From Negativicutes bacterium (GTDB lineage Bacteria; Bacillota; Negativicutes; UBA1444), in assembly GCA_963665275.2 (NCBI GenBank), contig CAXXIN010000005.1, positions 32,001 to 96,000 of the forward strand: DNA of 64,000 nt, written 5' to 3'. Under the pieces are notes generated by a model, which saw only the letters and a program-made list of their open reading frames with translations, did no database searches and was not told the DNA's origin. Position numbers and translations under genes: made by a program. Shown piece after piece: positions 31,039 through 50,374 of the stretch (position 1 is its first letter; every line of letters begins with the position of its first letter).

Positions 31039-31239
31039 ATGCCGCATACACAACGAAAAAATATTGTTCCCGGCACTGCAGTCCAGGTCATCCAAAAGCC
31101 GCATCAGCGCAGTGGGCAACTGACGGATGGAATCGTGAAAGATATACTGACCTCCAGTCCGGTTCACTCACGGGGAATCAAAGTTCGCCTGACCTCCGGA
31201 ATCGTGGGACGCGTGCAGAAGATCCTGACGGCGATTTGA
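31039..31239 (+). CDS. ywbE: YwbE (DUF2196) family protein
   Basis: Q-K-HQRSGQLTDGIVKDILT...GIKVRLTSGIVGRVQ. Confidence 0.85.
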   Translation: MPHTQRKNIVPGTAVQVIQKPHQRSGQLTDGIVKDILTSSPVHSRGIKVRLTSGIVGRVQKILTAI

Positions 31240-31257
31240 GGAAAGCATGAAAAAACG

Positions 31258-33168
31258 ATGGGAATGATGATCGGATTTATTGCTCCCTATGCGGAATTGG
31301 CCGAAGTAGCTTCTGAAGTGCGGGAGGGAATGGGCCTCGATTTCCCCATTGCCGTGGGGATACTGGAAGGCGCAGTTGGTGTTGCCGACGCGCTCATTCA
31401 CCAGGGCGCGGAAGTAATCATCAGTCGCGGTGGTACGGCGGCTTTGCTGCGCAGCAAGCTGGACCTGCCTATCGTAGAGATCAAAGTGACCGGATATGAT
31501 GTGATGCGGGCGCTACATCCCTATATTGGGACAAACCGCAAAATTGCCATCGTGGGTTATCGAAACGTGGTGCACGGATGCCGGATATTTGGTGATTTGT
31601 TTGGTCTTTCGATCCGTGAACTTATTATTCCGTCCGAAGAAGTGGACAAGGACTGGGATGCGGCCCAGTTGGCAGTTCGGCGGCTGGTTGCTGAAAACGA
31701 CATTGATGTTGTAATCGGCGATTCGTTGGTGAAAGGCCGTCTGAAAGTCGAGAATATCGAAGTTCAGATGGTTGAATCAGGGAAGGAAGCGATCATTCAA
31801 GCCATCGAAGAAGCAAAAAATATTTCCCGGGTTCGTGAAAATGAACGTCGGGCCTATGAACGGTTGCGTACCATCATCCATTCGGTGCATGACGGCGTTG
31901 TCGCCACAGACGAACAAGGTCGCATCACGGCGGTCAATCTGGTGGCGGAGGAGATTTTTGGATTCAAGGAAAAAAACGTACTGGGCATGCCGATTGGCGA
32001 AGCCATCCCCAATACCAGGATCGACAAAGTCCTGCAGACGGGCCAGGCAGAACTGGAACAGTTGCAGCAGACTCCCAAGGGCTATATTGTTACAAACCGG
32101 GTGCCTTTCACGTTGGAGGGCCAAGTGCAGGGTGTCGTCGCTACGTTTCAGGAAGTGGCGAAAATCCAAAGCGTGGAGCAAAAAATCCGTCAGACTCTAT
32201 TTAATAACGGTTTGTTCGCCCGCTATCATTTCGATGATGTACTGACTGAGGATCCGCATTTGAAAAAGGTAGTTGCCATCGCAAAAAAATATGCACAGAC
32301 AGATGCGACGATGCTGATTTTGGGGGAAAGCGGGACCGGAAAAGAACTTTTTGCGCAGAGCGTTCATAATTACAGTTCACGGCGCAAAGAGGCCTTTGTG
32401 GCGATCAATTGCTCGGCATTGCCGGGCCAGCTGTTGGAAAGTGAATTGTTCGGTTACGTCGGCGGGGCTTTCACGGGAGCTCGAAAAGAAGGCAAGCGCG
32501 GTTTGTTCGAGTTGGCCCACAATGGCACGATTTTTCTCGATGAAATCGGTGATATGGACAAAGAGCTTCAATCGCGACTGTTGCGGGTGCTGGAAGAGAA
32601 ACAGGTGCGGCGCATCGGTTCGGACAGCATCATTCCTGTCAATGTGCGGGTGATTGCGGCTACCAATACGGACTTGTGGAACGAAGGGGTAAAGGGAAAT
32701 TTCCGTCTGGATCTATACTACCGGCTGAATGTGTTGAACATTAAATTGCCGCCACTGCGAGAGCGACGTTCTGATATCGCGTTATTGGCGAGATATTTGT
32801 TGCAGCGTTACTGTGACCAATATGGCAAAAAAATCACAACCCTGCCGCCAGAGATCGTCGAGCGATTGCAAGAACACCCATGGATTGGCAATGTCCGTGA
32901 ATTGAAGAACGTAATCGAACGGATCGTGCTTTCAAGTGAAAATGGCAGGGTTGATCCGGAAACGGTAGATTTGATGCTGGACAAACCGGCAGTCTTGTTG
33001 GAAGAAACCGGGTGGACGGATGATAACGCCATGTTGCAGGGAACGATGGATGAAATTAAGCATAAGGCTGCGATGTTTATCTTGGCGCAGGAAGGGAATA
33101 ACATCGCCCGGGCTGCGAGACGATTGGAAATTGACCGGAATACGCTCAAGAAAATATTGCAGCAATAA
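31258..33168 (+). CDS. sigma54-dependent activator, PrpR_N-PAS-AAA-HTH
   Basis: IISRGGTA (PrpR_N), GESGTGKE, ESELFG, GAFTGA, FLDEIG, WIGNVRELKN and Fis-type HTH. Confidence 0.93.
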   Translation: MGMMIGFIAPYAELAEVASEVREGMGLDFPIAVGILEGAVGVADALIHQGAEVIISRGGTAALLRSKLDLPIVEIKVTGYDVMRALHPYIGTNRKIAIVGYRNVVHGCRIFGDLFGLSIRELIIPSEEVDKDWDAAQLAVRRLVAENDIDVVIGDSLVKGRLKVENIEVQMVESGKEAIIQAIEEAKNISRVRENERRAYERLRTIIHSVHDGVVATDEQGRITAVNLVAEEIFGFKEKNVLGMPIGEAIPNTRIDKVLQTGQAELEQLQQTPKGYIVTNRVPFTLEGQVQGVVATFQEVAKIQSVEQKIRQTLFNNGLFARYHFDDVLTEDPHLKKVVAIAKKYAQTDATMLILGESGTGKELFAQSVHNYSSRRKEAFVAINCSALPGQLLESELFGYVGGAFTGARKEGKRGLFELAHNGTIFLDEIGDMDKELQSRLLRVLEEKQVRRIGSDSIIPVNVRVIAATNTDLWNEGVKGNFRLDLYYRLNVLNIKLPPLRERRSDIALLARYLLQRYCDQYGKKITTLPPEIVERLQEHPWIGNVRELKNVIERIVLSSENGRVDPETVDLMLDKPAVLLEETGWTDDNAMLQGTMDEIKHKAAMFILAQEGNNIARAARRLEIDRNTLKKILQQ

Positions 33169-33180
33169 AGCAAAATATAA

Positions 33181-33229
33181 TGAAAAAATAACCAAGTGGT
33201 GAAAAAATAACCATTTGGTTATTTTTTTT
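33181..33229. promoter_or_regulatory. Repeated upstream activator sites (may double as the activator gene's terminator)
   Basis: TGAAAAAATAACCA twice (33181, 33200) plus inverted TGGTTATTTTTT, 35-80 bp upstream of the sigma54 promoter. Confidence 0.55.
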
Positions 33230-33262
33230 GCCCCAGATAAGCGGGAATTTCGCTGATTTAAG

Positions 33263-33279
33263 TTGGCACAATTATTGCA
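33263..33279 (+). promoter_or_regulatory. sigma54 (-24/-12) promoter
   Basis: TTGGCAC-AATTA-TTGCA. Confidence 0.88.
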
Positions 33280-33338
33280 TTTAGAGTTTTCATGTCGAAA
33301 TGAAGTGCGAAATCCATCATTTGGAGGGCAAGGCTGAA

Positions 33339-34611
33339 ATGGAAAAAAAGGTTAAGATCCCTTATGGAAAAGACGTTTTGGAGTTTGCGGTGGCCGAAAA
33401 AAACCCTCATCGGTGTTTATTCACCGAAAGAGGTTCAGGTGGTTGCGGATATTTCACGAGAAATTCTTCGAGCGCTTGATGCGCCGATCGGCGCCCGGAA
33501 TCTGCGTGAACTGGCAAAAGGCGCCAAGAAAGTTGTGTTGGTAGCTGACGACAATACCCGGCTGACACCGACCAAGGAGATTATCCCAATCTTGCTCAAT
33601 GAACTTAACGCCGCCGGAATAAAAGACGAGCAGGTCACAGTTATCATTGCACTCGGTACCCACCGGCCTATGCGGCAGGAAGAAATTTTGGCCAAGTACG
33701 GAGAAGAGGTTGTTCGTCGGGTAACGGTGAAAAACCATAATTTCCGTGATCCTGAGCTGATGGTTGACTTGGGAACGACGCCTAATGGCACCCATATCAA
33801 GGTTAACCGGGAAGCGTACGAGGCAGATTTCAAAATTGGTATCGGGAGTATTGTACCCCATTATATTCCCGGATTTGCGGGTGGCGCCAAAATTGTGCAA
33901 CCCGGGATTTCCGCCGAGCAGACAACAGCGGAAACTCATCTGCTCAGCACCTGTGAGCCACGTTCGTTTTTGGGAATCCGGGACAATCCGGTTCGTATCG
34001 AACTCAACGGCATTGCACGGGCGGTGGGGTTGCAAACGATCATGAATACGGTGCTCAACTGTCATGGCGAAGTAGTCGGCGCTTTTTTCGGTGATGTTGT
34101 AGACGCCTTCAACGCTGGTGTAGAGTTGGCCCGCGAGGTTTATTCCGTGGAACTGCCGGAGGTTGCGGATATTGTCATTGCCAGCTCTTTCCCTTGCGAC
34201 ATCGAATTTTGGCAGGCGCATAAAGCTTTATACCCTGCGGACTTGGCGGTTAAGGCCGGTGGAATCATAATTTTGGCAACTCCTTGTTGTGAAGGAGTAT
34301 CGGTGACACACGCGGATATTCTGGAGATTACCGGGGAATCGATGCAGGGACTGAAAGATCGCGTGGCACGCAAGGAAGTGCATGATGAAGTTGCTGCTTC
34401 GCTGGCGATTGGCTGGGCCCAGGTAAAGGAACGCGAATCGGTGTATATGGTGTCATCCGGTGTCTGCGACGCAGATGCCCGGAAACTTGGGTTCAAACCG
34501 TTTGATTCCGTTCAGGCTGCATTGGCAGCGGCATTGTCGGTTAAGGGGGCGGAAGCTCGCGTAACGGTTTTGACCCATGCACCTGACATGCTGCCGGTCA
34601 TACAAGGGTAA
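33339..34611 (+). CDS. larA: LarA-family nickel-pincer 2-hydroxyacid racemase/epimerase (+1 frameshift at 33397-33406)
   Basis: MEKKVKIPYGK N-terminus from ATG 33339 joins LIGVYSP after removing one base; DNTR, LGTHR, PHYIPGFAGGAK and QAHK motifs. Confidence 0.85.
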
Positions 34612-34665
34612 GGATTCAAAATGATATTGACAGGAAATCATTGCAAGAGTGAAGGAGATGTATCC

Positions 34666-35831
34666 ATGCAGTTCAAGGGATACCGGCGGCCTGACGGAAA
34701 AGTTGGAATTCGCAACCAGGTTTTGGTTTCTGCCCAGCGTAGTCCTGCGCGAACCGGGCCGCGCGGGGGATTTCTCAGGCAGTGGCGGGAACGACCTGGG
34801 TCGAGCATCAGCATGGTTGTACCCAGTTGGGGGCTGATGCGGAACTCACGGCCCAGGTTTTGGTTGCACATGGAACCCACCCGAACGTGTCTGGTGTAAT
34901 CGTGGTCGGGCTTGGTTGTGAAACCATCCGGGCCCAGGATATCGCAGCAGAAATCAAAAAGCAGTGCCCCTATAAAAATGTTGCAACTGTCATTATTCAA
35001 GACGAAGGGGGTTCGGTCAAAGCCATCAGCGTCGGCGCCAGTGCTGCCCGGGAATTCGTGGGTGCTGCCTCGGCGGATGAGCGTGAGTGGATTGATGTAT
35101 CCGAACTGATTTTGGGGACCGAATGTGGCGGCTCTGACGCCTGCTCGGGAATTTCGGCCAATCCGGCTCTCGGCGTGACGAGCGACATGCTGATTGATGC
35201 CGGCGGTAGCGTGATTTTGGCGGAGACGACGGAAATCATCGGGGCCGAGCATTTGATCGCAGCAAGGGCGATCAACCCGCAAGTGGCGCGCAAATGTTTC
35301 GATGTCATCAATGCCTGTGAAGCCTCTGCCAACAAAATGGGCGTGGACATGAGGGGCAGTCAGCCTACTCCGGGTAATATTGCCGGAGGGCTGTCCTCGA
35401 TTGAGGAAAAATCACTGGGGTGTATTTATAAGGCGGGAACCCGGCCGCTGCAGGATGTGATCGAGTATGCGGCTCCAGTCACACAAAAAGGGCTGGTGTG
35501 GATGGACACTCCGGGTCAGGATATTGAACAATTGACCGGCATGGTTGCAGGCGGGTGCCACTTGGTTGTATTTACAACAGGACGCGGAACTTGCTGCGGC
35601 TCAGCGATTGTTCCTACGATCAAAGTCTCCACGAATACGGCGTTGTTCGAATGGATGAACGACAATATTGATATCAATGCCGGTACGGTGATTACCGGCG
35701 AAGAAAATGTGGAACAAGTCGGGCAACGTATTTTTGCCGAAATGCTGGAAGTCGCTTCAGGCAAGTTGGCAAAAGCGGAAATACTAGGCTTCAACGATTT
35801 TGCCATCCGGCGAATCGGGCCTACGATGTAA
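34666..35831 (+). CDS. UxaA/GarD/SuyB-family dehydratase large subunit (two +1 frameshifts at about 34728 and 34744)
   Basis: Reconstructed MQFKGYRRPDGKVGIRNQVLVLPSVVCANRAA..HQHGC; GLGCE, ECGGSD, PTPGNIAGG..EEKSLG and FTTGRG. Confidence 0.85.
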
Positions 35832-35866
35832 TGGAAATCGATTCGAAAACAGAGGGGTTGGGGAAA

Positions 35867-36157
35867 ATGGCCAGGTTACAGGCGATCGTAATGAAAACAA
35901 AAGATAATGTATGCACTGTAGTTGAAGCGATTGCGCCCGGTATGGACGTCGGCATGGAGATCGGCGGAGAGATCCAAAGTGTAAGGGCCAATGAGCCGAT
36001 TCCTGTGGGGCACAAACTGGCAATCCATGATATCGACAAAGGTGACATCATCATGAAATATGGCGAAGTCATCGGTCGGGCGACGCAGGATATCCGCATC
36101 GGACAGCATGTTCACGTACACAATCTGGAGAGCTGCCGCGGCCGGGGCGACCGCTAG
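35867..36157 (+). CDS. SAF-domain small subunit of the UxaA/SuyA-family dehydratase
   Basis: DNV, IPVGHKLA, KYGEVIG and HVHVHNL. Confidence 0.88.
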   Translation: MARLQAIVMKTKDNVCTVVEAIAPGMDVGMEIGGEIQSVRANEPIPVGHKLAIHDIDKGDIIMKYGEVIGRATQDIRIGQHVHVHNLESCRGRGDR

Positions 36158-36182
36158 GAACTAGAGACTGGAGGAATGAACC

Positions 36183-37145
36183 ATGGAGAAGAAATGGAAC
36201 GTGTATGTAACCCGCATGATTCCACAGGAAGTGCTGGACGAACTCGCGCAGCACTGCAACGTGGAAGTCAATCCGGAAAACCGCCCGCTGACGAAAGCCG
36301 AACTGATGGAGAACATTCGAGGACGGGATGCAGTATTGACTCAGGCCGGTGACCCCGTGGATGATGCCGTCATGGAAGCGGCGGGGCCACAATGTCGAAT
36401 TTTTGCCAACTATGCGGTAGGTTATAACAATTTCGAGCTGGCAGCGGCGGCGCGCCGGAATGTCTGGCTGTCCAACACGCCGGACGTGGTGACGGACTCG
36501 ACGGTTGAAATGGCCTGGGCTCTTTTGTTCGCTGTAGCCCGCCGTCTCGTCGAGGCTGATGCTTATGTCCGGTCAGGAAAATTCAAAGGACTGGATCCGA
36601 TGCTGTTGTTGGGAACGGGTCTGGCTGGCAAAACTCTCGGCGTGATCGGCGCCGGTCGAATAGGCAGCAAGTTCGCCCAAAAAGGCCGGGCTTTCGACAT
36701 GAAGATCATTTATAACGATGTGGCTCCTAATCCCCGTTTCGAAGCAGAAACCGGCGCAACTTACGTTGAAAAGGACAGCCTGCTCGCGCAAGCCGACTTT
36801 TTATCGCTGCATGTACCGTTGCTGTCGGCGACCCGCCATCTGATCGGAGCCAGGGAATTGAAACTGATGAAGAAGACTGCTATTCTGGTTAACTCATCCC
36901 GCGGCCCGGTAGTCAACGAAACGGAATTGGTGCAGGCCTTGCGCGAGGGAGAAATTCGTGGTGCGGGGCTGGATGTGTTTGAGAACGAGCCGTTCCTGGC
37001 ACCGGGGTTGAGCGAGTTGTCTAATGTGGTGATGGCGCCGCATCTGGGCACCGCGACGAACGAAACCCGTTTGGGTATGGGGCGCGTGGCCATCGCGAAT
37101 ATACTGGCCGCGCTGCGAGGCGAAATCCCGCCAAACAAGCTATAA
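36183..37145 (+). CDS. D-isomer-specific 2-hydroxyacid dehydrogenase (glyoxylate/hydroxypyruvate reductase-like)
   Basis: NYAVGYNN, GAGRIG, NSSRGPVV, DVFENEP and PHLG. Confidence 0.9.
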   Translation: MEKKWNVYVTRMIPQEVLDELAQHCNVEVNPENRPLTKAELMENIRGRDAVLTQAGDPVDDAVMEAAGPQCRIFANYAVGYNNFELAAAARRNVWLSNTPDVVTDSTVEMAWALLFAVARRLVEADAYVRSGKFKGLDPMLLLGTGLAGKTLGVIGAGRIGSKFAQKGRAFDMKIIYNDVAPNPRFEAETGATYVEKDSLLAQADFLSLHVPLLSATRHLIGARELKLMKKTAILVNSSRGPVVNETELVQALREGEIRGAGLDVFENEPFLAPGLSELSNVVMAPHLGTATNETRLGMGRVAIANILAALRGEIPPNKL

Positions 37146-37248
37146 CGATCTAACGATTTGTAGACGTCGAGTGGGGGAGGAGGGTGTTCGACAAGCAATC
37201 CTGGGCGCAATTCGCAATTTATGAAAACAAAATGTGAGGGGGAGAATT

Positions 37249-38289
37249 ATGTCTAAAATATCAAAGAGTATTGTCGCACTCGGAGTTGCCATTTTCATGA
37301 TTTCCATGCTGCTGGTCGGGTGTTCCGGTGGTAACAAGAGCGCTGGCGGCGATAGCGCGGCTACTCCGAAAAAGGTCATACTGAAGCTCGGCACTGAAAC
37401 GGCCACATCTCACCCAGAAACCAAAGGTTCCCAAAAATTGGCCGACATAGTCAAGGAAAAATCAAAAGGAACCTTGGAAATTCAAGTGTTTGACAGTGCT
37501 AAAATCGGTAGTATGAAAGAAAGAACCGAGGGAATGCGGCTCGGAACGGTGGATATTTCGACCTCTTCCGTCGGTTTCCTGGCTTCTTACATCCCGGTAC
37601 TCGGCGTATTCGACCTTCCCTACATTTATAAGGATAAAGCCCATGAATTCCGAGTGTTCGACGGCGACATCGGCAAGGATATCGACAAGAAGATGCAGGA
37701 AAAAGGATTCCGCGTTGTCTGCTATTTCGACATGGGATCTCGTCAAATCACCAACAACAAGCAAGCCATCAACTCGTTGGAAGACATTAAAGGGATGAAG
37801 ATTCGCGTGCCGCAGACAGAAGCAAGCATAGAAGGCTTCAAGGCGCTGGGCGCCGCACCGACCCCGATGGCTTTCGGCGAAGTTTACATGGCGTTGCAGC
37901 AAAAAGTGGTTGATGGACAGGAAAATCCGCTTTCTGTCGTTGTCTCCGCCAAGTTCAACGAAGTGCAGAAATATTTGTCCCTCACCAACCACCAGCTCTT
38001 TATTCAAGTATTGTCTATTAGCGAAAAAACCTGGGCCAAACTCTCTCCTGAGCACCAAAAGATCCTGATGGAAGCTGCGAAAGAAGCTCAGGCCTATGAG
38101 CGCGAAATCGCTGCCAAAGAAGAGACTGAGTTGATCAAGACCCTCAAAGACAAAGGGATGGAAATCAATGAAGTGAAAAACATTGCACCCTTTGCTGAAG
38201 CGGCCAAACCGCTGCGGGAAATCTATATCAAGAAACTCGGCCAGGACGCCAAGGATATGTTCGGCAAGATCGATTCAGTTCGTAATTAA
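37249..38289 (+). CDS. dctP: TRAP substrate-binding lipoprotein DctP
   Basis: Lipobox LVGC; KIRVP (carboxylate-binding Arg present) and DGQENP. Confidence 0.93.
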   Translation: MSKISKSIVALGVAIFMISMLLVGCSGGNKSAGGDSAATPKKVILKLGTETATSHPETKGSQKLADIVKEKSKGTLEIQVFDSAKIGSMKERTEGMRLGTVDISTSSVGFLASYIPVLGVFDLPYIYKDKAHEFRVFDGDIGKDIDKKMQEKGFRVVCYFDMGSRQITNNKQAINSLEDIKGMKIRVPQTEASIEGFKALGAAPTPMAFGEVYMALQQKVVDGQENPLSVVVSAKFNEVQKYLSLTNHQLFIQVLSISEKTWAKLSPEHQKILMEAAKEAQAYEREIAAKEETELIKTLKDKGMEINEVKNIAPFAEAAKPLREIYIKKLGQDAKDMFGKIDSVRN

Positions 38290-38306
38290 CCCTGCGAATG
38301 ATGGTG

Positions 38307-38342
38307 GCGTGCTTCAACTTGGAAATCCAGGTTGAAGCATGC
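38307..38342 (+). other. Intergenic hairpin without U tract after dctP (probable mRNA stabiliser)
   Basis: GCGTGCTTCAACTTGGA-AA-TCCAGGTTGAAGCATGC. Confidence 0.55.
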
Positions 38343-38383
38343 GACCGGCATCAGTGAATATACCCTGAAGGAGTATTGGCGAA

Positions 38384-38824
38384 ATGAAGTTTAACAAGTT
38401 CCTGGATGGCGTGACCGTCTTGTGTATGGGCTTGATTCTCATATTGGTTGTTGCGCAGGTTGTCCTGCGGTATGTCTTCAACTCGCCGTTGACATGGTCG
38501 GAAGAGTTGGCGGTATACATCATGGTGTGGATGACGTTTATTGGCTCGGTTATCTGCATGCGGGATAACGAACATATTGAAGTGACGATTCTGGTCGACT
38601 ATCTGCCGCGCGGCCTTCGGCGTGCTGCGATTCTCTTTAGCCGTCTGGCCTCGGTGATATTCTTGCTGGTTGTCATGTATTATGGAACTGAATTGGTTTT
38701 GGAAAATCGCAGTGTGACCTCTGCTGCTAACAAGCTTAACATGGGCTTGGTATATTCTATTCTTCCCATTTGCTCTCTCGGAATGTTGTATTACGTTATC
38801 AGATCCATTATGAGGGGGGAATAG
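38384..38824 (+). CDS. dctQ: TRAP small permease DctQ
   Basis: QVVLRYVFNSPLTWSEELA, HIEV; 4 TM. Confidence 0.92.
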   Translation: MKFNKFLDGVTVLCMGLILILVVAQVVLRYVFNSPLTWSEELAVYIMVWMTFIGSVICMRDNEHIEVTILVDYLPRGLRRAAILFSRLASVIFLLVVMYYGTELVLENRSVTSAANKLNMGLVYSILPICSLGMLYYVIRSIMRGE

Positions 38825-38830
38825 GGAATT

Positions 38831-40117
38831 ATGGAAGCAACTATTATCATGGGCGTCATGATGGGGTTGATGATGCTAAGGGTGCCTGTGGCTTTTGCGA
38901 TGGCATTGTCGGCAATCGTTGCATTGGTTATTGGCGACATCCCTCTAACCTTGGTGCCACAGCGGATGTTTAACTCTCTGGACTCTTTTCCCCTCCTGGC
39001 AATTCCCTTGTTTGTTTTTGTCGGCGAAGCGATGAATACCGGCGGGATTACTACCCGGATCTTCAATTTTGCGCGGGAATATGTGAAGCATATTACGGGT
39101 AGTCTTGGACATGTGAATGTTATTTCCAATATTATTATTGCCGGCATGTCCGGGTCGGCGGTAGCTGATGCCTCGGCCATCGGTGTCGTTGAAATCAAAG
39201 CCATGGAGAAAGACGGATTTGATCGGGAGTGGTCGGCTGCGCTGACTGCTGCCTCTTCAACAATCGGACCCATCATCCCTCCGAGTATTCCTTTGGTCAT
39301 TTATGCGATTATTACTGAAACCTCCATTGGCCGGCTTTTTCTTGGCGGAGTAGTTCCCGGCCTGATGATGGGGATTTCTCTCATGATACTGGTCTACATA
39401 ATGTCCAAACAACGGGGCTATAAAGTTGAACCCAAAGCGACTTGGAGCGAACGTTGGGATGCCACGAAAAAAGCAATTCCATCTCTAATGACACCTGTTC
39501 TCATGTTTTCCGGGATCGTATTCGGTATTGTTACTCCGACTGAAGGCGCCGGTATTGCTGCGGCCTACGCGATATTTCTCGGGTTCGTGATTCACAGGGA
39601 AATGAGTTTGCCTGAGTTGTATCATATTATGCTCAGAACTGTTCACTGCACGGCGGTGATCATGCTGATCATCTGCAGTTCGTCTGCTATTACTTGGGTA
39701 GTACAGACCTCCGGGCTGCCGAACCAGGTGGCTGCATGGTTATTATCCGTCAGTGACAGCAAAATTTTGCTGCTGCTTTTCATTAATGTAGTTCTGCTGA
39801 TCATGGGATGCCTTCTGGAAAGCAATTCGATCATCATGATCATGGTGCCTGTGCTGATGCCGTTGATTAAGGCGCTGGGTGTGGACCCTGTTCATTTTGG
39901 TGTGTTTTTCATTCTGAATGTCATGATTGGATTAATCACGCCTCCTGTCGGAATGTGTCTTTATGTAATATGCAACATATCGGAATGTTCTTTTGATAGG
40001 CTGTCGCGGGCAATCGTTCCATTCATCATTCCGCTGGTAGTGGTTTTGTTTATGATTACCTTTATTCCGGATTTGGTTATGTGGCTACCGAATCATGTGA
40101 TGGGCATTGCAAAATAA
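38831..40117 (+). CDS. dctM: TRAP large permease DctM
   Basis: SFPLLAIPLF, SGSAVAD, IIPPSIP, TPTE and DPVHFG..ITPPVG. Confidence 0.94.
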   Translation: MEATIIMGVMMGLMMLRVPVAFAMALSAIVALVIGDIPLTLVPQRMFNSLDSFPLLAIPLFVFVGEAMNTGGITTRIFNFAREYVKHITGSLGHVNVISNIIIAGMSGSAVADASAIGVVEIKAMEKDGFDREWSAALTAASSTIGPIIPPSIPLVIYAIITETSIGRLFLGGVVPGLMMGISLMILVYIMSKQRGYKVEPKATWSERWDATKKAIPSLMTPVLMFSGIVFGIVTPTEGAGIAAAYAIFLGFVIHREMSLPELYHIMLRTVHCTAVIMLIICSSSAITWVVQTSGLPNQVAAWLLSVSDSKILLLLFINVVLLIMGCLLESNSIIMIMVPVLMPLIKALGVDPVHFGVFFILNVMIGLITPPVGMCLYVICNISECSFDRLSRAIVPFIIPLVVVLFMITFIPDLVMWLPNHVMGIAK

Positions 40118-40154
40118 CGTGAGTGAATATGGAAAAAAGAAAGAAGGGGATTCA

Positions 40155-40826
40155 ATGAAAACTGTTGTAGCGATCTATACGGCGATGGCGGTTGGGTTGA
40201 TGGCTGACATCAAACAAATGGTGGCCGAGGAAATTCCGGATTGTCGACTGATCAACATCGCTGATGACAGTCTGATCCAGGATGTCATCAAGGCTGGTGG
40301 ACCTACCATCAACGTGACCCGACGGTTGCTAGACTACTATCGGGCGGCTGAAGACGCGGGTGCTGATGTCATTCTCAACACTTGTTCATCGATCGGCGAA
40401 ATTGCCGAAATGGGGCGGAAATCTGCCAAAGTGCCTCTGGTCAAAATCGATGACGCCATGGCGTTGAAAGCCGTCAACATGGGGAGCCGAGTTGGCGTTA
40501 TTGCGACTCTGCCCACAACGCTGGGGCCGACTGTGAGGCTGGTGCAAAGTCAGGCGAAAAAGATCGATAAATCGGTTACTGTTGTGGAAGGGCTGGCCGT
40601 TGGCGCTTTTGAGGCGCTGATGTCAGGTGATGCCGAAAAACATGATGCACTGATTCTGCAGACGGCGAAAGACATAGCTGACAAGGTTGACGTGATTGTT
40701 CTGGCGCAAGGATCTATGGCGAAGATGCAGGACAAACTAACCCAGGCAATCGGTAAGCCGGTTTTGTCCAGCCCGCGGCTAGGTGTGCAGGAAGTACGGG
40801 ATATATTAAAGGGGGCGACGCAATGA
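40155..40826 (+). CDS. Asp/Glu/hydantoin racemase-fold protein with a single catalytic Cys
   Basis: ADVILNTCSS (first Cys), RVGVIAT, and VIVLAQGSM where the second Cys (LGCT) is replaced. Confidence 0.8.
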   Translation: MKTVVAIYTAMAVGLMADIKQMVAEEIPDCRLINIADDSLIQDVIKAGGPTINVTRRLLDYYRAAEDAGADVILNTCSSIGEIAEMGRKSAKVPLVKIDDAMALKAVNMGSRVGVIATLPTTLGPTVRLVQSQAKKIDKSVTVVEGLAVGAFEALMSGDAEKHDALILQTAKDIADKVDVIVLAQGSMAKMQDKLTQAIGKPVLSSPRLGVQEVRDILKGATQ

Positions 40827-41650
40827 GTTGCGAGGCCGTAAACTTGGTGGACATGGCGCGATTACTCCGCCGCGATGTGGTGGATACGGTATACCGGGCG
40901 AAAGACGGACATCCCAGTCCCGCGCTTTCCTGTGCGGATATTGTGGCTGCGTTGTTTTTTAAAGTGATGAAGCTGGATCCGCAAAATCCCACGTGGGCGG
41001 ACCGTGATCGCTTCGTGCTGTCCAAAGGACATGCCTGCCCGGTATTATACGCTGCGCTGGCACGCAAAGGGTATTTTTCCCGCGACGAGTTACCGGGACT
41101 GCGCAGCCTGGGGTCGTGCCTGCAAGGGCATCCCTGCATGCGCAAAACTCCGGGTATCGACATGACCTCCGGTTCCCTCGGCAATGGGATTTCCATTGGT
41201 GCGGGCATGGCGATGGCCGGGAAGTATCTGCAGAAGGACTATAATACCTACGTAATCCTGGGAGATGGCGAAATTCAGGAAGGTATCGTTTGGGAAGCGG
41301 CGATGGCTGCTGTCAAACATAAGCTGGACAACTTGATTGTGTTCATCGACAACAATGGACTGCAAAGCGGCGGCAAAGTCAGCGACGTAAGCGGGATCAT
41401 GCCGATTTATGAAAAATGGCAGGCTTTCCAATGGCATTGCCAGGAGATTGACGGCCACAACATGAATGGGATCCTTGCTGCCGTTGAAAATGCGCAGCAG
41501 ACGAAGGGCAAACCTTCGATGATTCTGGCCCACACCGTCAAAGGAAAGGGAGTTCCCTTCATGGAAACAGATAATTCCTGGCACAAGCGCGTTCCGACGG
41601 ACGCCGAATATAAGGAAGCAATGGAGATACTGGGAGGGATGGATAAGTGA
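40823..41650 (+). CDS. Transketolase N-terminal (TPP-binding) subunit
   Basis: GHPS, DRFVLSKGHA, LQGHP, GSLGNG and GDGE..EG..WEA...DNN. Confidence 0.93.
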   Translation: MSCEAVNLVDMARLLRRDVVDTVYRAKDGHPSPALSCADIVAALFFKVMKLDPQNPTWADRDRFVLSKGHACPVLYAALARKGYFSRDELPGLRSLGSCLQGHPCMRKTPGIDMTSGSLGNGISIGAGMAMAGKYLQKDYNTYVILGDGEIQEGIVWEAAMAAVKHKLDNLIVFIDNNGLQSGGKVSDVSGIMPIYEKWQAFQWHCQEIDGHNMNGILAAVENAQQTKGKPSMILAHTVKGKGVPFMETDNSWHKRVPTDAEYKEAMEILGGMDK

Positions 41651-42612
41651 GTAGCTACAAAGGATCCCGGGAAGCTTTCGCGGCAGCGATGATGCAGCTG
41701 GCAGAGGAAGATCCCTGCTACGTAACGATTTCTCCCGATTCGATGAAAGCCATGCGCATGGTCGATTTTGCGGAGAAATATCCGAAGAAATTCTTTGAAG
41801 TCGGCATCGCTGAGCAGAATGCAGTAGGTTGCGCAGCAGGTATGGCCGCTTGCGGTCTAGTGCCTTTTGTAGCAACGTATTCCGGGTTTATTACCATGCG
41901 GGCCTGCGAGCAGGTGCGAACCTTCGTGGCGTATCCGCAGCTCAACGTGAAACTGGTCGGCGCCAACGGCGGCATCTTCGGCGGCGAGCGCGAAGGGGTC
42001 ACTCATCAGTTCTTTGAAGATCTCGGCATTTTGCGTTGCATTCCGGAAATGACCATCGTTGTTCCGTCGGATGCCTCGCAGGTGTTTGCCGCAACCCTTG
42101 CGATCGCCCGAAAACCGGGACCGGCATTTATGCGCATCGCCAGTGGACGCGAACACGTGATTTTTAACAAAGAAATTCCGGTATTTGAACTGGGCAAGGC
42201 GCGAAAGCTTGTTGAATACGGCGACGATGTAGCGTTGATGACTTGCGGTTTTATCTTGAGCCGGGTGCTGGAAGCGGCTGAAGTATTGAAGGAGCAGGGT
42301 ATCAAGGCGACGGTGCTGGAAGTTCACACGTTGAAACCGCTCGACGTAGCGGCGATTGCGGCTGTTGCGACTGCTACCGGTGCGGTGGTAACTGTGGAAG
42401 ACCATAACGTGATCGGCGGGCTGGGGAGCGCGGTGGCGGAAGTCATTGCTGAACAAGCTCCGGCTTCTTTGGTCAGAATCGGTTTGCAGGATGTGTTCCC
42501 CGAATCGGGACCGGCTGAAGCTTTACTGGATTACTACAACATGGGTGTGGATGACATCGTCAAAGCCGCGAAAACCGCGATGGCGAAACGGGATCATCGA
42601 CGGGTCGGTTGA
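41647..42612 (+). CDS. Transketolase C-terminal subunit
   Basis: GIAEQN, RACEQVR, EGVTHQ, LKPLD and EDHNVIGGLG. Confidence 0.93.
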   Translation: MSSYKGSREAFAAAMMQLAEEDPCYVTISPDSMKAMRMVDFAEKYPKKFFEVGIAEQNAVGCAAGMAACGLVPFVATYSGFITMRACEQVRTFVAYPQLNVKLVGANGGIFGGEREGVTHQFFEDLGILRCIPEMTIVVPSDASQVFAATLAIARKPGPAFMRIASGREHVIFNKEIPVFELGKARKLVEYGDDVALMTCGFILSRVLEAAEVLKEQGIKATVLEVHTLKPLDVAAIAAVATATGAVVTVEDHNVIGGLGSAVAEVIAEQAPASLVRIGLQDVFPESGPAEALLDYYNMGVDDIVKAAKTAMAKRDHRRVG

Positions 42613-42637
42613 CAACAAGCGAATAGGCGGCTATATT
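42609..42637 (+). promoter_or_regulatory. sigmaA-like promoter upstream of tyrS
   Basis: TTGACA-N17-TATATT overlapping the transketolase stop codon. Confidence 0.5.
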
Positions 42638-42656
42638 TAGAGTGCAAGCTGCATAG

Positions 42657-42699
42657 GGGTAAAGCCCGTCCCTCAAGTGGGATGGGTTTCCCTTTTTTT
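42657..42699 (+). terminator. Intrinsic terminator between the catabolic operon and tyrS
   Basis: AAGCCCGTCCC-TCAAGT-GGGATGGGTTT..CCTTTTTTT. Confidence 0.75.
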
Positions 42700-42739
42700 G
42701 CGCAGTCGGCAGCCTGAATATAGAGGAGGGTTTTCCATA

Positions 42740-43957
42740 ATGTCTGTACTGGATACACTGATCGAACGCGGCTTTGTCCATCAAATGACCCATGAAGATG
42801 AAATCACTGAACTGCTGGATAAAGAAAAAATTACGTTTTATATCGGCTTCGATCCGACGGCGGATAGTCTGCATGTCGGTCATTTTCTGGGGATGATGGT
42901 CATGGCTCATATGCAACGTGCCGGACATCGTCCTATTTGCCTGATCGGCGGGGGAACCGCCATGATCGGCGATCCTTCCGGCAAGACCGATATGCGCAAG
43001 ATGATGACGCCGGAAATCATTCAACATAATGGGGACTGTTTCAAAGAACAAATGCGTCGGTTCATCGATTTTTCCGAAGATAAGGCGCTGATGCTAAATA
43101 ACGCGGACTGGCTGTTGCAGCTCAACTATGTGGAATTGCTGCGCAGCGTCGGCGCAGGCTTCTCAGTGAACCGAATGCTGACGGCTGACTGCTATAAGCA
43201 GCGTCTGGAGCACGGACTGACTTTTCTTGAATTCAACTATATGGTCATGCAAGCCTATGACTTTTTGGAACTGTACCGGCTCACCGGTTGCGTCATGCAG
43301 ATGGGCGGCGCCGATCAGTGGTCGAATATTCTGGCCGGGGCCGATCTGATTCGCCGCAAAGAAGGCAAGCCTGCGTTCGGCTTGACGTTTACGTTGCTAA
43401 CGACGAGTGATGGCCGTAAAATGGGAAAAACCGAAAAAGGCGCCCTGTGGTTGGATCCCGAAAAAACTTCGCCTTATGATTTTTATCAATATTGGCGGAA
43501 TGTTGACGATGCGGATGTTGCGAAATGTCTGGCATTGCTGACGTTCCTGCCAATGGACGAAGTACGTCGGTTGGGTGCATTGAAAGATCAGGAAATCAAT
43601 ACGGCAAAAAAAGTCTTGGCCTATGAAGTGACCCAGTTGGTGCATGGCAAGGAAGAAGCGGACAATGCTCAGCAGGCGGCGGAAGCCCTTTTCGGCGGCA
43701 CGGGCGCTTTGGACAACGCGCCGACGGTGACGATTTCCCGGGAAATGATCGGGACCAAGCTGGTTGATGTTTTGACCGCGACGGGAGTATTCACTTCCAA
43801 AGGTGAAGGGCGGCGACTGATCCAGGGCGGCGGACTGTATGTAGGAGATGCGAAAGTGTCGGATCCCGACTTTCTGTTGACGGATGATCTGTTTGATGGC
43901 GCCGGTTTATTGATCCGTAAAGGAAAGAAGAGCTACCACCGGATTGTGATTGGATAA
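42740..43957 (+). CDS. tyrS: Tyrosine--tRNA ligase
   Basis: [13 protein letters not shown] (HIGH), [13 protein letters not shown] (KMSKS) and C-terminal S4 domain. Confidence 0.96.
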
Positions 43958-44028
43958 AACTCAAGGAGTTTCCCCGATGTGATAAACTGATGTCGTAAGG
44001 TACATTGGCGAAATAATGGAGGTTCTGC

Positions 44029-44250
44029 TTGAAAACTGTTAAATCACCGTTGGATGGATTTATCATATCCGTGAATGTATCGGTTGGCGATCAGGTAACA
44101 AAAGGCCAACTGCTCGCGGTTGTGCTTATTTTGAAAATGGAGAACCCTGTACTGAGTGACAGGGACGGGGTCGTCAAAGAGGTTTTTGTCAAAAACAAAA
44201 CCCGGGTTAAGTACGGGCAACCGTTGCTGTGTATCGAAAAAACCGTCTGA
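44029..44250 (+). CDS. Stand-alone biotin/lipoyl carrier domain protein
   Basis: SPLDG..VGDQVTKGQ...LKMEN...GVVKE..V..GQPL; GGAGG RBS, TTG start. Confidence 0.8.
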   Translation: MKTVKSPLDGFIISVNVSVGDQVTKGQLLAVVLILKMENPVLSDRDGVVKEVFVKNKTRVKYGQPLLCIEKTV

Positions 44251-44270
44251 TTTTGAGGAGGGACGTACCT

Positions 44271-44702
44271 TTGGAAATGCCTTTTCCGCCGGCTTTGCCG
44301 GAACAACCGCGTTACGCTGGATTTTGGATCCGCCTTCTCGCATATATTCTCGACGCCATTGTTCTCGGCGCCATTACTTATCCGTTGATCCGGGTGCTCT
44401 CGAGCATGGGGATCGGCGACAGCTCCTCCAATATTCTGAGCATCGCAATTAGCTGGATGTACTTTGTGGTATTTGAAAGTTCCGAATGGATGGCCTCGCC
44501 AGGCAAAAAAGTGCTGGGATTGATCGTTACCGATGAACAGGGGAAGAAAATCAGCATTGGCCGCGCAACCCGGCGCTATCTCGCCAAAATAGTTTCGGGA
44601 TTGATCCTGGGTATTGGTTTTATCATGGTCGCCTTTACCGCCCGCAAACAGGGGCTGCATGATAAAATATTCCACACGCTGGTTTTGCGGACGAAATACT
44701 AA
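44271..44702 (+). CDS. RDD family membrane protein
   Basis: YAGFWIRLLAYILD, SPGKK and KQGLHD. Confidence 0.9.
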   Translation: MEMPFPPALPEQPRYAGFWIRLLAYILDAIVLGAITYPLIRVLSSMGIGDSSSNILSIAISWMYFVVFESSEWMASPGKKVLGLIVTDEQGKKISIGRATRRYLAKIVSGLILGIGFIMVAFTARKQGLHDKIFHTLVLRTKY

Positions 44703-44708
44703 ACAGAC

Positions 44709-44761: not shown

Positions 44762-44765
44762 ATGC

Positions 44766-44811: not shown

Positions 44812-44840
44812 ATGGTTGGCAATAATTATACGAACTGTCG

Positions 44841-50373: not shown

Positions 50374-50374
50374 C

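Follow-up and report, generated by a model that had tools for sequence, protein, structure and literature searches.

A sigma-54-controlled ten-gene operon with a putative nickel-pincer epimerase, a UxaA/SAF dehydratase and a split transketolase in an uncultured Negativicutes bacterium

The window analyzed here, a 64-kb stretch of DNA taken as a whole, carries ten genes that form an intact, probably catabolic operon of an uncultured anaerobe under sigma-54 control, and their predicted products suggest a small imported hydroxy-carboxylate as the substrate, a reading to which we give a probability of about 0.6. The genes run in one direction in the order larA homologue, UxaA-type dehydratase large subunit, SAF-domain small subunit, GRHPR-type D-2-hydroxyacid dehydrogenase, dctPQM, one-cysteine Asp/Glu-racemase-fold protein and split transketolase (Table 1), with tight spacing (gaps of -4 to 94 nt) and overlapping stop and start codons between some of them. 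Pfam, NCBIfam and sequence checks recovered at their coordinates all elements named in an earlier sequence-only reading of this DNA, confirming its proposal of a single co-directional sigma-54 operon. The operon probably encodes an acid-sugar catabolic route whose nickel enzyme would convert 2R to 2S ahead of the dehydratase, with a putative substrate and a predicted transketolase step. Literature searches found no described pathway with this combination of nickel epimerase, dehydratase, reductase, racemase-like protein and transketolase, as that reading had supposed.

Table 1. Features of the operon and its flanks
Feature	Coordinates	Strand	Basis
Sigma-54 enhancer-binding activator, 636 aa, PrpR_N-PAS-sigma54 AAA+-HTH_8	31258-33168	+	Pfam
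Two tandem 19-nt repeats (33181-33199, 33200-33218) overlapping hairpin and T-run 3' of activator gene	33181-33232	+	sequence
Sigma-54 -24/-12 promoter TTGGCACAATTATTGCA	33263-33279	+	sole exact TGGCAC-N5-TTGC match in the 64-kb window
LarA-family nickel-pincer 2-hydroxyacid racemase/epimerase (putative)	33339/33364-34611, true start ATG 33339	+	Pfam Lar_N + LarA_C
UxaA/GarD-family dehydratase large subunit, 387 aa after removing spurious bases near 34727, 34744	34666-35831	+	GD_AH_second + GD_AH_C (Pfam)
SAF-domain dehydratase small subunit, 108 aa	35831-36157	+	Pfam SAF
D-isomer-specific 2-hydroxyacid dehydrogenase, glyoxylate/hydroxypyruvate/2-ketoaldonate reductase type	36183-37145	+	Pfam
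DctP	37234-38289	+	Pfam, NCBIfam
DctQ	38384-38824	+	Pfam, NCBIfam
DctM	38831-40117	+	Pfam, NCBIfam
Asp/Glu/hydantoin-racemase-fold protein, 223 aa	40155-40826	+	Pfam Asp_Glu_race
Split transketolase, N half	40823-41650	+	Pfam
Split transketolase, C half	41647-42612	+	Pfam
11-pair hairpin and T-run, 3' of operon and 5' of true tyrS start (ATG near 42738)	42662-42699	+	sequence

The promoter lies 60 nt upstream of the true larA start and adjoins the activator gene, and rpoN is present in the genome. By itself the motif says little, because seven matches to TGGCAC-N5-TTGC with at most one mismatch occur in the window against 5.4 expected; its value comes from context. A -24/-12 element is found at the equivalent site in three of five orthologous loci: a pattern search recovered it in L023 and L024, and visual inspection in L022 (GTGGCATGGAATTTGCA), the pattern not being matched in L025 and L027. 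All three paralogous UxaA operons of congeners that were tested have it as well. The activator, whose best NCBIfam matches are PrdR and PrpR (neither reaching cut-off), has orthologues of 81-86% identity upstream of larA in L022, L023 and L024. The hairpin and T-run behind the activator gene recur at the equivalent site in orthologous loci, and the hairpin stretch that follows the operon is kept at 81-85% in front of tyrS even in congeners without the operon. In sequencing run X1, a third copy of the 19-nt repeat is present.

The whole operon was found only in this genus, where about six genomes have it, and in a permuted form in a single further Bacillota MAG; the neighborhood, for which the sequence-only reading had proposed a conservation check, is thus kept among congeners. 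It is colinear at 76-79% DNA identity in G006, G009, G001 and G008, carries a variant TRAP in G011, and has its two modules in opposite order yet still adjacent in L027. At least five congeners hold the ten genes together under one promoter.

The LarA homologue, whose gene as deposited has one A too many in the run that ends at 33404, keeps in alignment the equivalents of His108, His174, Arg75, Lys184, His200, Gln295 and Lys298, comprising both catalytic histidines and all NPN-binding residues, and C2 inversion via hydride shuttling would be expected of it as of the LarA superfamily. The motifs PHYI and WQAHK are present, bearing out the view that it departs from lactate racemase at substrate positions: its specificity positions read Y, I, V and A, a pattern outside the published LAR, GntE, HGR and MAR signatures (rule in section 6 of PMC11770544). 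It scores below the cut-off of every NCBIfam LarA family and shares the Lar_N plus LarA_C architecture with the closest solved protein, Mar2 malate racemase 6d6z, at only 225 bits. In a quick tree the operon-type LarAs form a separate six-row clade (SH-aLRT 99), with Tyr beside the catalytic His where relatives carry His; the literature search found no tested substrate for this clade.

Relatives 54-100% identical to the G009 orthologue were surveyed at 79 loci within a radius of 8 kb, revealing PdxA-family genes at 43, DUF1537 kinases at 36, IlvD-type genes at 16, PanB-like genes at 14 and UxaA large subunits at 7. The DUF1537 kinases match best, below cut-off, the 'D-threonate kinase' model, and the PdxA genes match generic PdxA models first (one above cut-off) and then, below cut-off, 'D-threonate 4-phosphate dehydrogenase'. 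Since searches of this genome for a DUF1537 kinase and PdxA2 gave no match, the case for a tetronate is drawn from relatives 60-72% identical.

The dehydratase shares its GD_AH_second, GD_AH_C and SAF domains with the UxaA/GarD/SuyAB family, the SAF part having its own gene 3' of that for the large subunit, a two-subunit form that we take to be that of SuyAB as well. The SAF subunit aligns to the galactarate dehydratase model over model positions 3-78, and its gene directly follows the large-subunit gene in all relatives examined. What had been described as a split UxaA is the normal large plus SAF form, the extra breaks being assembly errors according to read contigs. The closest solved structure to the large subunit is E. 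coli GarD 6u7l (222 bits), but with a TIGR03248 (galactarate dehydratase) score of 246 against a cut-off of 731 the enzyme does not count as an equivalog of that protein. Identity stays at 79% or more throughout the 120 best clusters, which make up a tightly conserved unnamed clade, and none of these 120 closest homologues is called a sulfo-lyase in any source. At 20 fetched Negativicutes loci the dehydratase has LarA-family genes from three distinct groups as neighbors, others being an SDR and DUF1537 kinase pair, or an HpcH aldolase with IlvD. Repeated adjacency in many Negativicutes genomes supports a predicted coupling of a LarA-family epimerase with the UxaA/SAF dehydratase.

The dehydrogenase scores 350.7 against a cut-off of 455 for NF009714, and its closest solved relatives are Pyrococcus-type glyoxylate reductases (6bii, 5aov and 2dbq). 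Ranking of DctP against the PDB did not discriminate between ligands, sialic-acid binders, 4pdd/4pdh/4p9k (presumably D-erythronate- or pantoate-bound) and unliganded proteins scoring alike. DctP keeps residues aligned with Arg152, Arg173 and Asn213 of 4P47, so the carboxylate arginine is intact as previously read; roles of such residues are given in part of PMC11668362.

The racemase-fold protein belongs by fold to the Asp/Glu/hydantoin racemase superfamily, which includes arylmalonate decarboxylase. Foldseek with its AF2 model (pLDDT 96.6) returned TM 0.6-0.8 and 11-22% identity to allantoin, hydantoin, Asp and Glu racemases and AMDase, but it keeps only one of the two catalytic cysteines. 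A 50-homologue alignment revealed one invariant Cys (CSS), Ser at the second catalytic Cys position (AQGSM) and a conserved set of C77, D99, H163, Q185 and S187. Few genomes of the phylum (17 of 401) have a homologue, and Rac-TKN-TKC, or Rac with TRAP and transketolase, appears again at three of eight fetched loci. The transketolase is an accessory copy, the genome also encoding a full-length and another split enzyme; the closest solved protein is the likewise two-gene transketolase of Carboxydothermus hydrogenoformans, 6yak/6yaj (284 and 248 bits). Seven racemase-linked C halves share the motifs DSxKxxR, GFITMRACEQVRTF and GGEREGVTHQF, which are absent from four unlinked split transketolases and thus, among the copies compared, mark only racemase-linked ones. 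This distinctive subtype and the racemase-fold gene co-occur in distant Firmicutes.

In the pathway that we propose, LarA would invert C2 of the acid from 2R to 2S, a direction suggested by the GRHPR-type dehydrogenase, which makes and uses 2R-hydroxy acids, while known UxaA-family substrates (D-altronate, D-arabinonate and one end of galactarate) carry a 2S,3R head group. The dehydratase would then yield a 2-oxo-3-deoxy acid, either 4-hydroxy-2-oxobutanoate from D-threonate or pyruvate from glycerate, and the dehydrogenase would interconnect 2-oxo and 2R-hydroxy forms. The one-cysteine protein may shift a proton at the keto-acid carbon beside the carboxylate (isomerization, epimerization or decarboxylation), and the dedicated transketolase could feed the pentose-phosphate pool with a C2 ketol unit taken from the keto-acid, which would be 3-oxo-tetronate or hydroxypyruvate. 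That LarA sets C2 for the dehydratase gains from the adjacency above. Where the sequence-only reading had listed an aldonate, aldarate or sulfo-acid, context favors an aldonate with a neutral tail, preferably C4; glycerate ranks second, and aldarate and sulfolactate are less likely. Our best guess, a tentative one, is D-erythronate/D-threonate or L-threonate, against which it counts that no linear C4-acid scheme drawn takes in both enzymes, either the dehydratase or the transketolase being left on a side branch. Since the modules also occur apart, more than one substrate may be handled by the ten genes.

A serious rival, though a doubtful one, places glycerate, hydroxypyruvate and tartronate semialdehyde at the center. 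The dehydrogenase would reduce hydroxypyruvate to D-glycerate, LarA would racemize glycerate and UxaA/SAF would be a dedicated glycerate dehydratase forming pyruvate; the racemase-fold protein would interconvert hydroxypyruvate and tartronate semialdehyde, and the transketolase would use hydroxypyruvate, its classical donor, or free tartronate semialdehyde from a C5 ketol acid. Glycerate dehydration is known as a side activity of IlvD-type enzymes, and the sole glycerate dehydratase activity found in the literature search is listed there as the target of an enzyme-optimization study. Yet the closest UxaA/SAF relatives (74-83%, in G007, G014, G033 and G121) are neighbors of a LAR-group LarA that passes the Ni_dep_LarA cut-off (513 versus 460). 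The G007 copy, 76-77% identical to the other three, has the signature F,F,W,Q, which one part of PMC11770544 ties to the glycerate-specific LarAH43, and its cluster also contains a glycerate kinase; this context points to C3 over C4. In the same direction, the G010 dehydratase cluster adjoins pyruvate:ferredoxin oxidoreductase, the operon dehydrogenase is nearest to glyoxylate/hydroxypyruvate reductases, and L144 combines Rac, TRAP, a Hyi/OtnI-type TIM-barrel and transketolase. However, the pocket of the operon LarA (Y, I, V, A) is wider than in glycerate- or lactate-type enzymes, C4-acid kinase/PdxA clusters are the setting to which its clade is linked, and a route from glycerate through hydroxypyruvate to transketolase costs a carbon with no evident gain.

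A C5-C6 aldonate is an unlikely substrate. We also consider it improbable that larA-uxaA and dehydrogenase-TRAP-Rac-transketolase are modules for different or loosely related substrates joined under one promoter, although LarA-UxaL-SAF stands alone in L121, UxaL-SAF has other partners too, Rac-TKN-TKC lies in pectin-/sugar-type clusters at L137 and L138 and Rac with TRAP and transketolase at L144, and the module order is reversed in L027. The ten genes stay together in the congeners, the modules being adjacent even when permuted, and they share tight spacing, one activator and one transporter.

DctP-type TRAP systems classically import C4-dicarboxylates, and tartrate or another aldarate has a slim chance of being the substrate. 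LarA would epimerize tartrate isomers and the GarD-like enzyme convert tartrate to oxaloacetate, or the dehydrogenase and an AMDase-like decarboxylase would lead from tartrate through oxaloglycolate to hydroxypyruvate and glycerate. GarD is the closest solved dehydratase; for LarAH group 5 (Mar1) the association with COG2721 'altronate dehydratase' is given as 100% (Table S1, PMC7583248, Desguin 2020), and Mar1 racemizes malate and epimerizes tartrate as a side activity, according to PMC11770544, which also ascribes second-carboxylate binding to an H/Q-K pair lacking in the operon LarA. The latter reaches 287 and 337 bits against MAR-model cut-offs of 462 and 500, its relatives sit with kinases requiring a terminal CH2OH, and the TIGR03248 score is low.

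Desulfonation of sulfolactate is very improbable. The large and SAF subunits would form a SuyAB-type (R)-sulfolactate sulfo-lyase, with LarA racemizing sulfolactate in place of a two-dehydrogenase shuttle; we take architecture and chemistry of SuyAB to be the same, (R)-sulfolactate C2 would spatially equal that of 2S aldonates, and the TRAP family contains an isethionate (sulfonate) binder with 146 bits to DctP. Against this, the operon has no sulfite exporter or reductase gene by Pfam, its order is large then small, presumably not that of suyA and suyB, the LarA pocket offers a sulfonate no cationic partner, the LarA clade keeps kinase/PdxA company, and the sulfo-lyase name is absent among the 120 homologues.

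As deposited, larA and uxaA-large are broken by three +1 frameshifts, of which one lies in the A7 run at the larA 5' end and two lie in uxaA-large, and neither larB nor larC was found in the searched assembly (92.6% complete), but a decaying, non-functional operon devoid of cofactor synthesis is hardly credible. Logan contigs of runs X1, X2 and X5, from three studies, each lack one base at 33404, 34727 (34729 in X5) and 34744, the X1 contig having no other differing letters over the whole stretch compared apart from a 19-letter insertion behind 33199; real mutations are thereby contradicted. Because congener orthologues of uxaA-large are also unbroken at 387 aa, we regard both genes as whole and the frameshifts as consensus errors. 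The sequence-only reading had allowed for real frameshifts in a genome lacking larBCE; the first half fails, and larE is present along with six Lar_N genes above cut-off. Both larB and larC occur in 11 of 11 congeners, and an 18-kb region that surrounds them in G010 is missing from this assembly.

The acid-sugar pathway that we favor can be set beside three known systems. In the transketolase-dependent sulfoquinovose pathway a dedicated transketolase acts on an anionic ketose and a reductase follows; by analogy the accessory enzyme here would strip C2 units from a hypothetical acid substrate, unlike that pathway with no sulfosugar genes present. LarAH group 5 (Mar1, Desulfitobacterium hafniense), for which the LarA-altronate dehydratase link was previously on record, likewise fixes a LarA homologue beside a UxaA-family dehydratase (COG2721), and regulators of sigma-54 type and tripartite transporters are frequent there too (PMC7583248). 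It differs in its MAR signature, its TctABC transporters and its model (LarAH5, 287 versus cut-off 462), and Table S1 of PMC7583248 lists no transketolase, racemase-fold or GRHPR-type genes for it. The four-carbon acid-sugar pathways (DtnK/DenK with PdxA2; Ltn2D/OtnI/OtnK/OtnC; Ltn3D; ApnO) are approached through the LarA relatives inside DUF1537-kinase/PdxA clusters. An NPN epimerase is absent from these pathways as described in parts of PMC13753588 and PMC12994016, where a dehydrogenase and an isomerase lead to a 3-oxo-acid; the dehydrogenase and racemase-fold genes would fit this logic, with the kinase and decarboxylating dehydrogenase replaced by dehydratase and transketolase.

The operon comprises ten co-directional genes downstream of a sigma-54 promoter, in the order LarA, UxaA/GarD-type large subunit, SAF small subunit, D-isomer 2-hydroxyacid dehydrogenase, DctP, DctQ, DctM, racemase-fold protein (Rac) and the N and C halves of a transketolase (TKN and TKC), with spacings of -4 to 94 nt and overlapping stop and start codons at three junctions. 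By itself the promoter motif is weak evidence, with one exact match in the window and seven at one mismatch against 5.4 expected. It becomes more credible through its position 60 nt upstream of larA, the adjoining sigma-54 activator gene, the presence of rpoN in the genome (G000, a metagenome-assembled genome of 20 contigs and 92.6% completeness, with the window at G000:C5:32001-96000) and the recurrence of the -24/-12 element, at the same position in three of five orthologous loci (L022, L023 and L024; no match at L025 and L027) and also in three related UxaA operons of the congeners G007 and G010. Promoter, adjacent enhancer-binding protein and genomic rpoN together bear out the sigma-54-dependent operon proposed in the sequence-only reading. 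The 19-nt repeat between activator gene and promoter occurs in two copies in the window and in three in an otherwise identical contig of sequencing run X1.

Features in and around the operon (window positions)
Feature	Position	Strand	Remarks
Orphan DctP paralogue	14500-15534		64% identical to operon DctP; without DctQM; directly after a 1024-aa GGDEF-EAL protein (11373-15534)
Sigma-54 enhancer-binding protein	31258-33168	+	PrpR_N, PAS, AAA+ and HTH_8 domains
Hairpin and T-run region	33181-33218 (repeats)		two 19-nt tandem repeats; between activator gene and promoter
Sigma-54 promoter TTGGCACAATTATTGCA	33263-33279	+	GG-N10-GC type
tyrS leader	42609-42740		sigma-70-like promoter TTGACA-17-TATATT (11/12), then 11-pair hairpin and T-run, then ATG
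Hairpin (11 pairs) and T-run	42662-42699		3′ of last operon gene
Gene row	44841-53625 (region)	minus	family III CoA-transferase, HMGL-like lyase, DASS-type symporter, MatC/CitMHS carrier, aconitase-family large and small subunits
Near-consensus -24/-12 site TGGCATAAAAATTGC	51618-51632	minus	
Second PrpR_N-type sigma-54 activator	51694-53625	+	faces the minus-strand gene row

Downstream, tyrS was considered as a further operon member and rejected, having its own promoter-like site, a conserved hairpin leader and a true start at the ATG near 42738; its leader is 81-85% conserved in congeners lacking the operon, which places the gene outside the unit. An Rfam search of 30500-45500 at gathering thresholds returned nothing, including no T-box before tyrS. 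Farther along, the minus-strand row facing the second activator looks like another organic-acid operon.

Three-frame reading placed a +1 shift in larA, 20 codons past its true start (the ATG at 33339) and within an A7 run, and two more +1 shifts, 17 nt apart, near the 5′ end of uxaA-large; in the congeners G009 and G006 the orthologues read without a break for 387 aa. Logan contigs of four sequencing runs (X1, X2, X3 and X5, of which X2 and X5 come from other studies) were compared with the deposited assembly over 33200-35900. The contigs of X1, X2 and X5 each lacked one base at 33404, 34727 (34729 in X5) and 34744, with no other letter differing in X1 over the whole stretch, and those of X3 ended at or near each of the three places. 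Given three runs without the extra bases and the intact orthologues, the frameshifts are consensus errors of the deposited assembly, each a single extra base called in a short homopolymer run and all three within 1.4 kb; larA and uxaA-large are whole, and the proviso that the frameshifts might be real fails. Other apparent frameshifts and split genes in G000, such as the overlapping ORFs at 5647-6600 and the two DBI_PRT ORFs at 23304-25207, may be artefacts too, and since those in the operon are consensus errors, pseudogene calls in this assembly need checking against reads.

The LarA homologue carries both domains of its superfamily (Pfam: PF09861, Lar_N, 1.5e-61; PF21113, LarA_C, 6.6e-9), and alignment of the G009 orthologue to 5huq showed that the equivalents of His108, His174, Arg75, Lys184, His200, Gln295 and Lys298 (LarA1 numbering) are kept. 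With the two catalytic His and the NPN-binding residues in place, its membership of the superfamily stands. The window protein has the motifs GTHR, PHYI, NTR, GGAK and WQAHK, which are invariant in 14 relatives, and its nearest solved structure is Mar2 (6d6z; 225 bits, full-length alignment). It falls under the cut-off of all six NCBIfam LarA models matched, and the many relatives at 67-97% identity in public databases are each unnamed or labelled 'lactate racemase'. Four specificity-predicting positions are defined in section 6 of PMC11770544, and the signatures read from that paper are F,F,W,E/Q for LAR, E,V,A,H for GntE, Y,F,H/Q,T for HGR and x,x,H/Q,K for MAR; the operon LarA has Y, I, V, A.

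The LarA neighbourhoods were scanned in one genome per species, giving 79 loci with relatives 54-100% identical to the G009 orthologue used as query; L049 was left out of a Pfam scan of these neighbourhoods. Counted up to 8 kb from LarA, there was a PdxA-family gene at 43/79 loci, a DUF1537 kinase at 36/79, DctM at 32/79, an IlvD-type dehydratase at 16/79, a PanB-like gene at 14/79 and UxaA-large at 7/79, all lower bounds because many loci are cut by contig ends. The adjoining kinases matched best the 'D-threonate kinase' model, below its cut-off, and the PdxA genes matched generic PdxA models first and then 'D-threonate 4-phosphate dehydrogenase', the latter below cut-off. The complete operon was present only at L022 and L097; contig ends truncate it at L023 and L024, the TRAP system differs at L025, and at L027 the genes run in the order Rac-TKN-TKC-LarA-UxaL-SAF (UxaL, UxaA-large). 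A DNA search found the operon in colinear form, at 76-79% identity, in the congeners G006, G009, G001 and G008, upholding conservation of the neighbourhood; it occurs as a variant in G011 and as a fragment at a contig end in G005; as a unit it is absent from the complete genomes G007 and G010. In a quick maximum-likelihood tree, from which two of the 79 loci with partial LarA matches were left out, the six operon-type LarAs formed a single clade (SH-aLRT 99) apart from the kinase-linked LarAs. Next to the catalytic His they have Tyr and the others His, in a regular-expression motif table that is partial, at least one motif being missed in 40/79 sequences.

A different arrangement was seen in Sporomusaceae and Syntrophales (L030, L036, L064, L099 and others), where the LarA relatives are accompanied by genes for an IlvD-type dehydratase and for one or two PanB-like hydroxymethyltransferases; at L085 a formate-THF ligase adjoins LarA. 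These LarA/IlvD/PanB-like clusters hint at a route shedding hydroxymethyl groups as methylene-THF after dehydration.

The cofactor genes gave a divided answer when larB, larC and larE were sought in the genome. larE was found above cut-off (306.8 bits), together with seven Lar_N matches, six of them above cut-off. In the 92.6% complete assembly neither TIGR00299 nor PF01969 matched a LarC, and there was no LarB, the lone AIRC-domain gene being PurE-like; yet larB and larC are adjacent in 11/11 other genomes of the genus, near a contig end in several. Assembly or binning of this region may be difficult. In the congeners the pair is embedded in 18 kb or more of sequence for which G000 has no counterpart (L145; G010:C26:114001-132000), and only 4 of the 17 ORFs of the 18-kb G010 region had a tblastn match anywhere in G000, none of them syntenic. 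As six LarA-family genes are kept in G000, a gap in the assembly is much likelier than true loss of the larB/larC-bearing segment.

The dehydratase has SAF, GD_AH_second and GD_AH_C domains and reading frames that are whole once the assembly errors are removed, as in the UxaA/GarD family; its large subunit scored 222 bits to E. coli GarD and was found in 58/151 sampled genomes of the class (E<=1e-100). The large-subunit clade is unusually conserved: identity is no lower than 79% in any of the 120 best clusters, whose names go no further than 'UxaA family hydrolase' or 'altronate dehydratase large subunit'. We compared the dehydratase neighbourhoods at 20 fetched loci and in G007 and G010. Copies 79-83% identical mostly follow a PrpR_N-type activator gene and have varying partners, namely a KdgT-type permease and a LAR-group LarA (above the Ni_dep_LarA cut-off, F,F,W,Q), an SDR and a DUF1537 kinase, or a LarA of the operon's own clade (L121). 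The G007 copy (74% identical) has the KdgT/LAR-group arrangement plus a glycerate kinase, and copies 69-75% identical occur with an 'NPN isomerase group 22' protein, an HpcH/HpaI aldolase and an IlvD-type enzyme. Pairing of the UxaA/SAF dehydratase with a LarA-family gene across these loci is thus a recurrent design. Table S1 of Desguin et al. 2020 (PMC7583248) already gives a 100% association of COG2721 'altronate dehydratase' with LarAH group 5; the tested member of this group, which is not the group of the operon LarA, is the malate racemase Mar1.

Clusters of activator, UxaA-large, SAF, KdgT-type permease and LAR-group LarA with F,F,W,Q were seen at L112 (G007:C1:176000-184000), L117, L118 and L125, the G007 cluster having in addition a glycerate kinase and a GlcG-like gene. 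Each looks like a candidate glycerate racemase and dehydratase system.

The TRAP transporter has DctP, DctQ and DctM, and alignment of DctP to 4P47 showed equivalents of R152, R173 and N213, confirming that the carboxylate Arg is intact. Ranking DctP against PDB sequences did not separate ligand classes. Among the structures are 4PDD, 4PDH and 4P9K, which we take to be D-erythronate or pantoate complexes; a passage of PMC11668362 stating that a set of liganded homologues bind 'pantoate or erythronate' gives this loose backing. The orphan DctP paralogue beside the GGDEF-EAL protein may be a sensory binding protein. The nearest relatives of the dehydrogenase are Pyrococcus-type glyoxylate reductases (~270 bits), 2-ketogluconate reductase and human GRHPR.

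The racemase-fold protein was modelled with a pLDDT of 96.6; it has the fold of the Asp/Glu/hydantoin racemases and shares 11-22% identity with the solved members, without exception. Unlike those racemases it has its second catalytic Cys replaced, with AQGS(187)M at that site, so that across 50 homologues Cys77 is the only invariant Cys; D99 and Q185 are invariant as well. Its protein-atlas clusters carry only the generic name 'Asp/Glu racemase family', and the family is rare in the phylum (17/401 genomes, E<=1e-25). Loci were fetched from eight of the 16 other genomes with a match. Two of these eight have Rac-TKN-TKC followed by a transaldolase-like gene in sugar/pectin clusters, a third combines Rac and TRAP with a Hyi/OtnI-type TIM barrel and TKN-TKC, and at a fourth Rac is close to genes for a related dehydrogenase, an activator, a DUF1537 kinase and PdxA. 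L137 and L138, from another Firmicutes family, hold two different split-transketolase pairs, transaldolase/FSA-like, fucose-isomerase-like and pectate lyase genes and the racemase-fold gene.

ThDP-binding N, pyrimidine-binding and C domains are all present in the transketolase (Pfam), whose halves alone score under the equivalog cut-off (302 and 231 against 488) and are nearest to the solved split enzyme of C. hydrogenoformans. Seven racemase-linked C halves share motifs absent from four unlinked split copies, including an inserted Arg in GGEREGVTHQF, and three conserved motifs near the THQ histidine differ between the two sets. A housekeeping role for the operon enzyme was considered and rejected, as G000 also encodes a 662-aa transketolase and a second split copy, which makes the operon transketolase accessory. 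The second split copy lies outside the window, in a cluster with a GntR/FCD regulator and a TRAP system but no kinase, adjoining serS (L110; G000:C3:106278-113729).

Carboxylate-binding TRAP import and sigma-54 control are shown by the sequence; the rest of the pathway we infer. D-2-hydroxyacid dehydrogenases make and use 2R acids, and a 2S,3R head group is common to the known UxaA-family substrates (D-altronate, D-arabinonate and, at one end, galactarate); (R)-sulfolactate has the same spatial arrangement. An NPN epimerase would be a direct bridge between the two stereochemistries, 2R for the dehydrogenase and 2S for the dehydratase, and the homologous epimerisations would run from D-erythronate to D-threonate, from D-ribonate to D-arabinonate and from D-allonate to D-altronate. 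Of these, the C4 pair, and with it tetronate 2-epimerisation, is favoured by the kinase and PdxA genes around the LarA clade, and the nickel-pincer cofactor would thereby gain a physiological role in sugar-acid metabolism; the consumer in the kinase/PdxA clusters looks D-threonate-specific too. Passages of PMC12994016 and PMC13753588 set out how a dehydrogenase and an isomerase turn C4 and C5 acid sugars into 3-oxo acids, and by analogy this suggests that the dehydrogenase and the one-Cys protein may yield 3-oxo-tetronate. This product would have the ketol group required by transketolase and, when cleaved, would release glyoxylate, itself a substrate for the dehydrogenase.

A bolder reading, to which we assign a rough probability of 15%, is a kinase-free, transketolase-dependent route for C4 acid sugars. 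The epimerase would pool D-erythronate and D-threonate, the GRHPR-type dehydrogenase and the one-Cys racemase-fold enzyme would convert the 2R isomer to 3-oxo-tetronate, and the transketolase would split this into glyoxylate and a C2 unit passed onto glyceraldehyde-3-phosphate; in parallel, UxaA/SAF would be the first of its family to act naturally as a dehydratase of tetronate (or glycerate). A weakness of the C4 route is that dehydratase and transketolase form two branches and not one line. Its rival, a C3 hub of glycerate and hydroxypyruvate, gains from the glycerate-flavoured clusters in which the nearest dehydratase relatives occur, and has against it the kinase/PdxA genes around the LarA clade.

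Every part of the operon belongs to a known superfamily and none reaches an equivalog threshold; the unit would serve acid-sugar catabolism by an NPN epimerase, with two uncharacterised accessory families. Our literature search found no paper in which UxaA or altronate dehydratase is joined to LarA or to the nickel-pincer cofactor, no link of LarA to threonate or erythronate except for 4-deoxy analogues and, in the portions of the literature covered, no natural glycerate, threonate or erythronate dehydratase of the UxaA family. PdxA is absent from the main texts of both LarA-superfamily papers (PMC11770544 and the 2020 paper, PMC7583248), DUF1537 from the main text of the latter, and COG1995 and COG3395 from its supplement. 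The supplements of PMC11770544 may assign the clade, and the assignment of 'half of the LarAHs' in its Fig. 2 could already name it. The uncharacterised LarA clade and the two-subunit UxaA-family dehydratase, very tightly conserved and habitually found with LarA-family genes in anaerobes, are targets for enzyme function; the one-cysteine racemase-fold family, which has no characterised member, and the linked transketolase subtype are further targets, making four linked ones. Should the transketolase prove to act on a keto-acid, acid sugars would have a new ATP-free entry into the pentose-phosphate pool.

Compared with known systems, the operon LarA scores 280.5 against the lactate racemase cut-off (Ni_dep_LarA) of 460 and lacks the F,F,W,E/Q signature, so the claim that its substrate-facing positions differ from those of lactate racemase holds. 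Against malate racemase it reaches 336.8 for LarAH6 (cut-off 500) and 287 for LarAH5 (cut-off 462), with V and A at the LarA1 W358/T359 positions instead of H/Q and K. The dehydrogenase has the family-level domains but stays below the GRHPR/GhrB equivalogs (NF009714, 350.7 against 455; GhrB, 241 against 492). The dehydratase is not an equivalog of galactarate dehydratase (TIGR03248, cut-off 730.85), its large subunit scoring 246.3 bits and SAF 45.3. SuyAB, the (R)-sulfolactate sulfo-lyase, consists of a small SAF and a large subunit, and the operon likewise has two, of 108 aa (SAF) and 387 aa; no operon protein matched a SuyB model in NCBIfam or Pfam, and Pfam revealed no sulfite-related gene in the operon. 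The tetronate pathway of DUF1537 kinase and PdxA2 differs in that both genes occur beside LarA relatives elsewhere but had no tblastn match across the whole G000 assembly (E<=1e-10, coverage>=0.4). In the kinase-free route, a carboxylate-adapted transketolase would parallel the sulfo-transketolase pathway as its carboxy-analogue.
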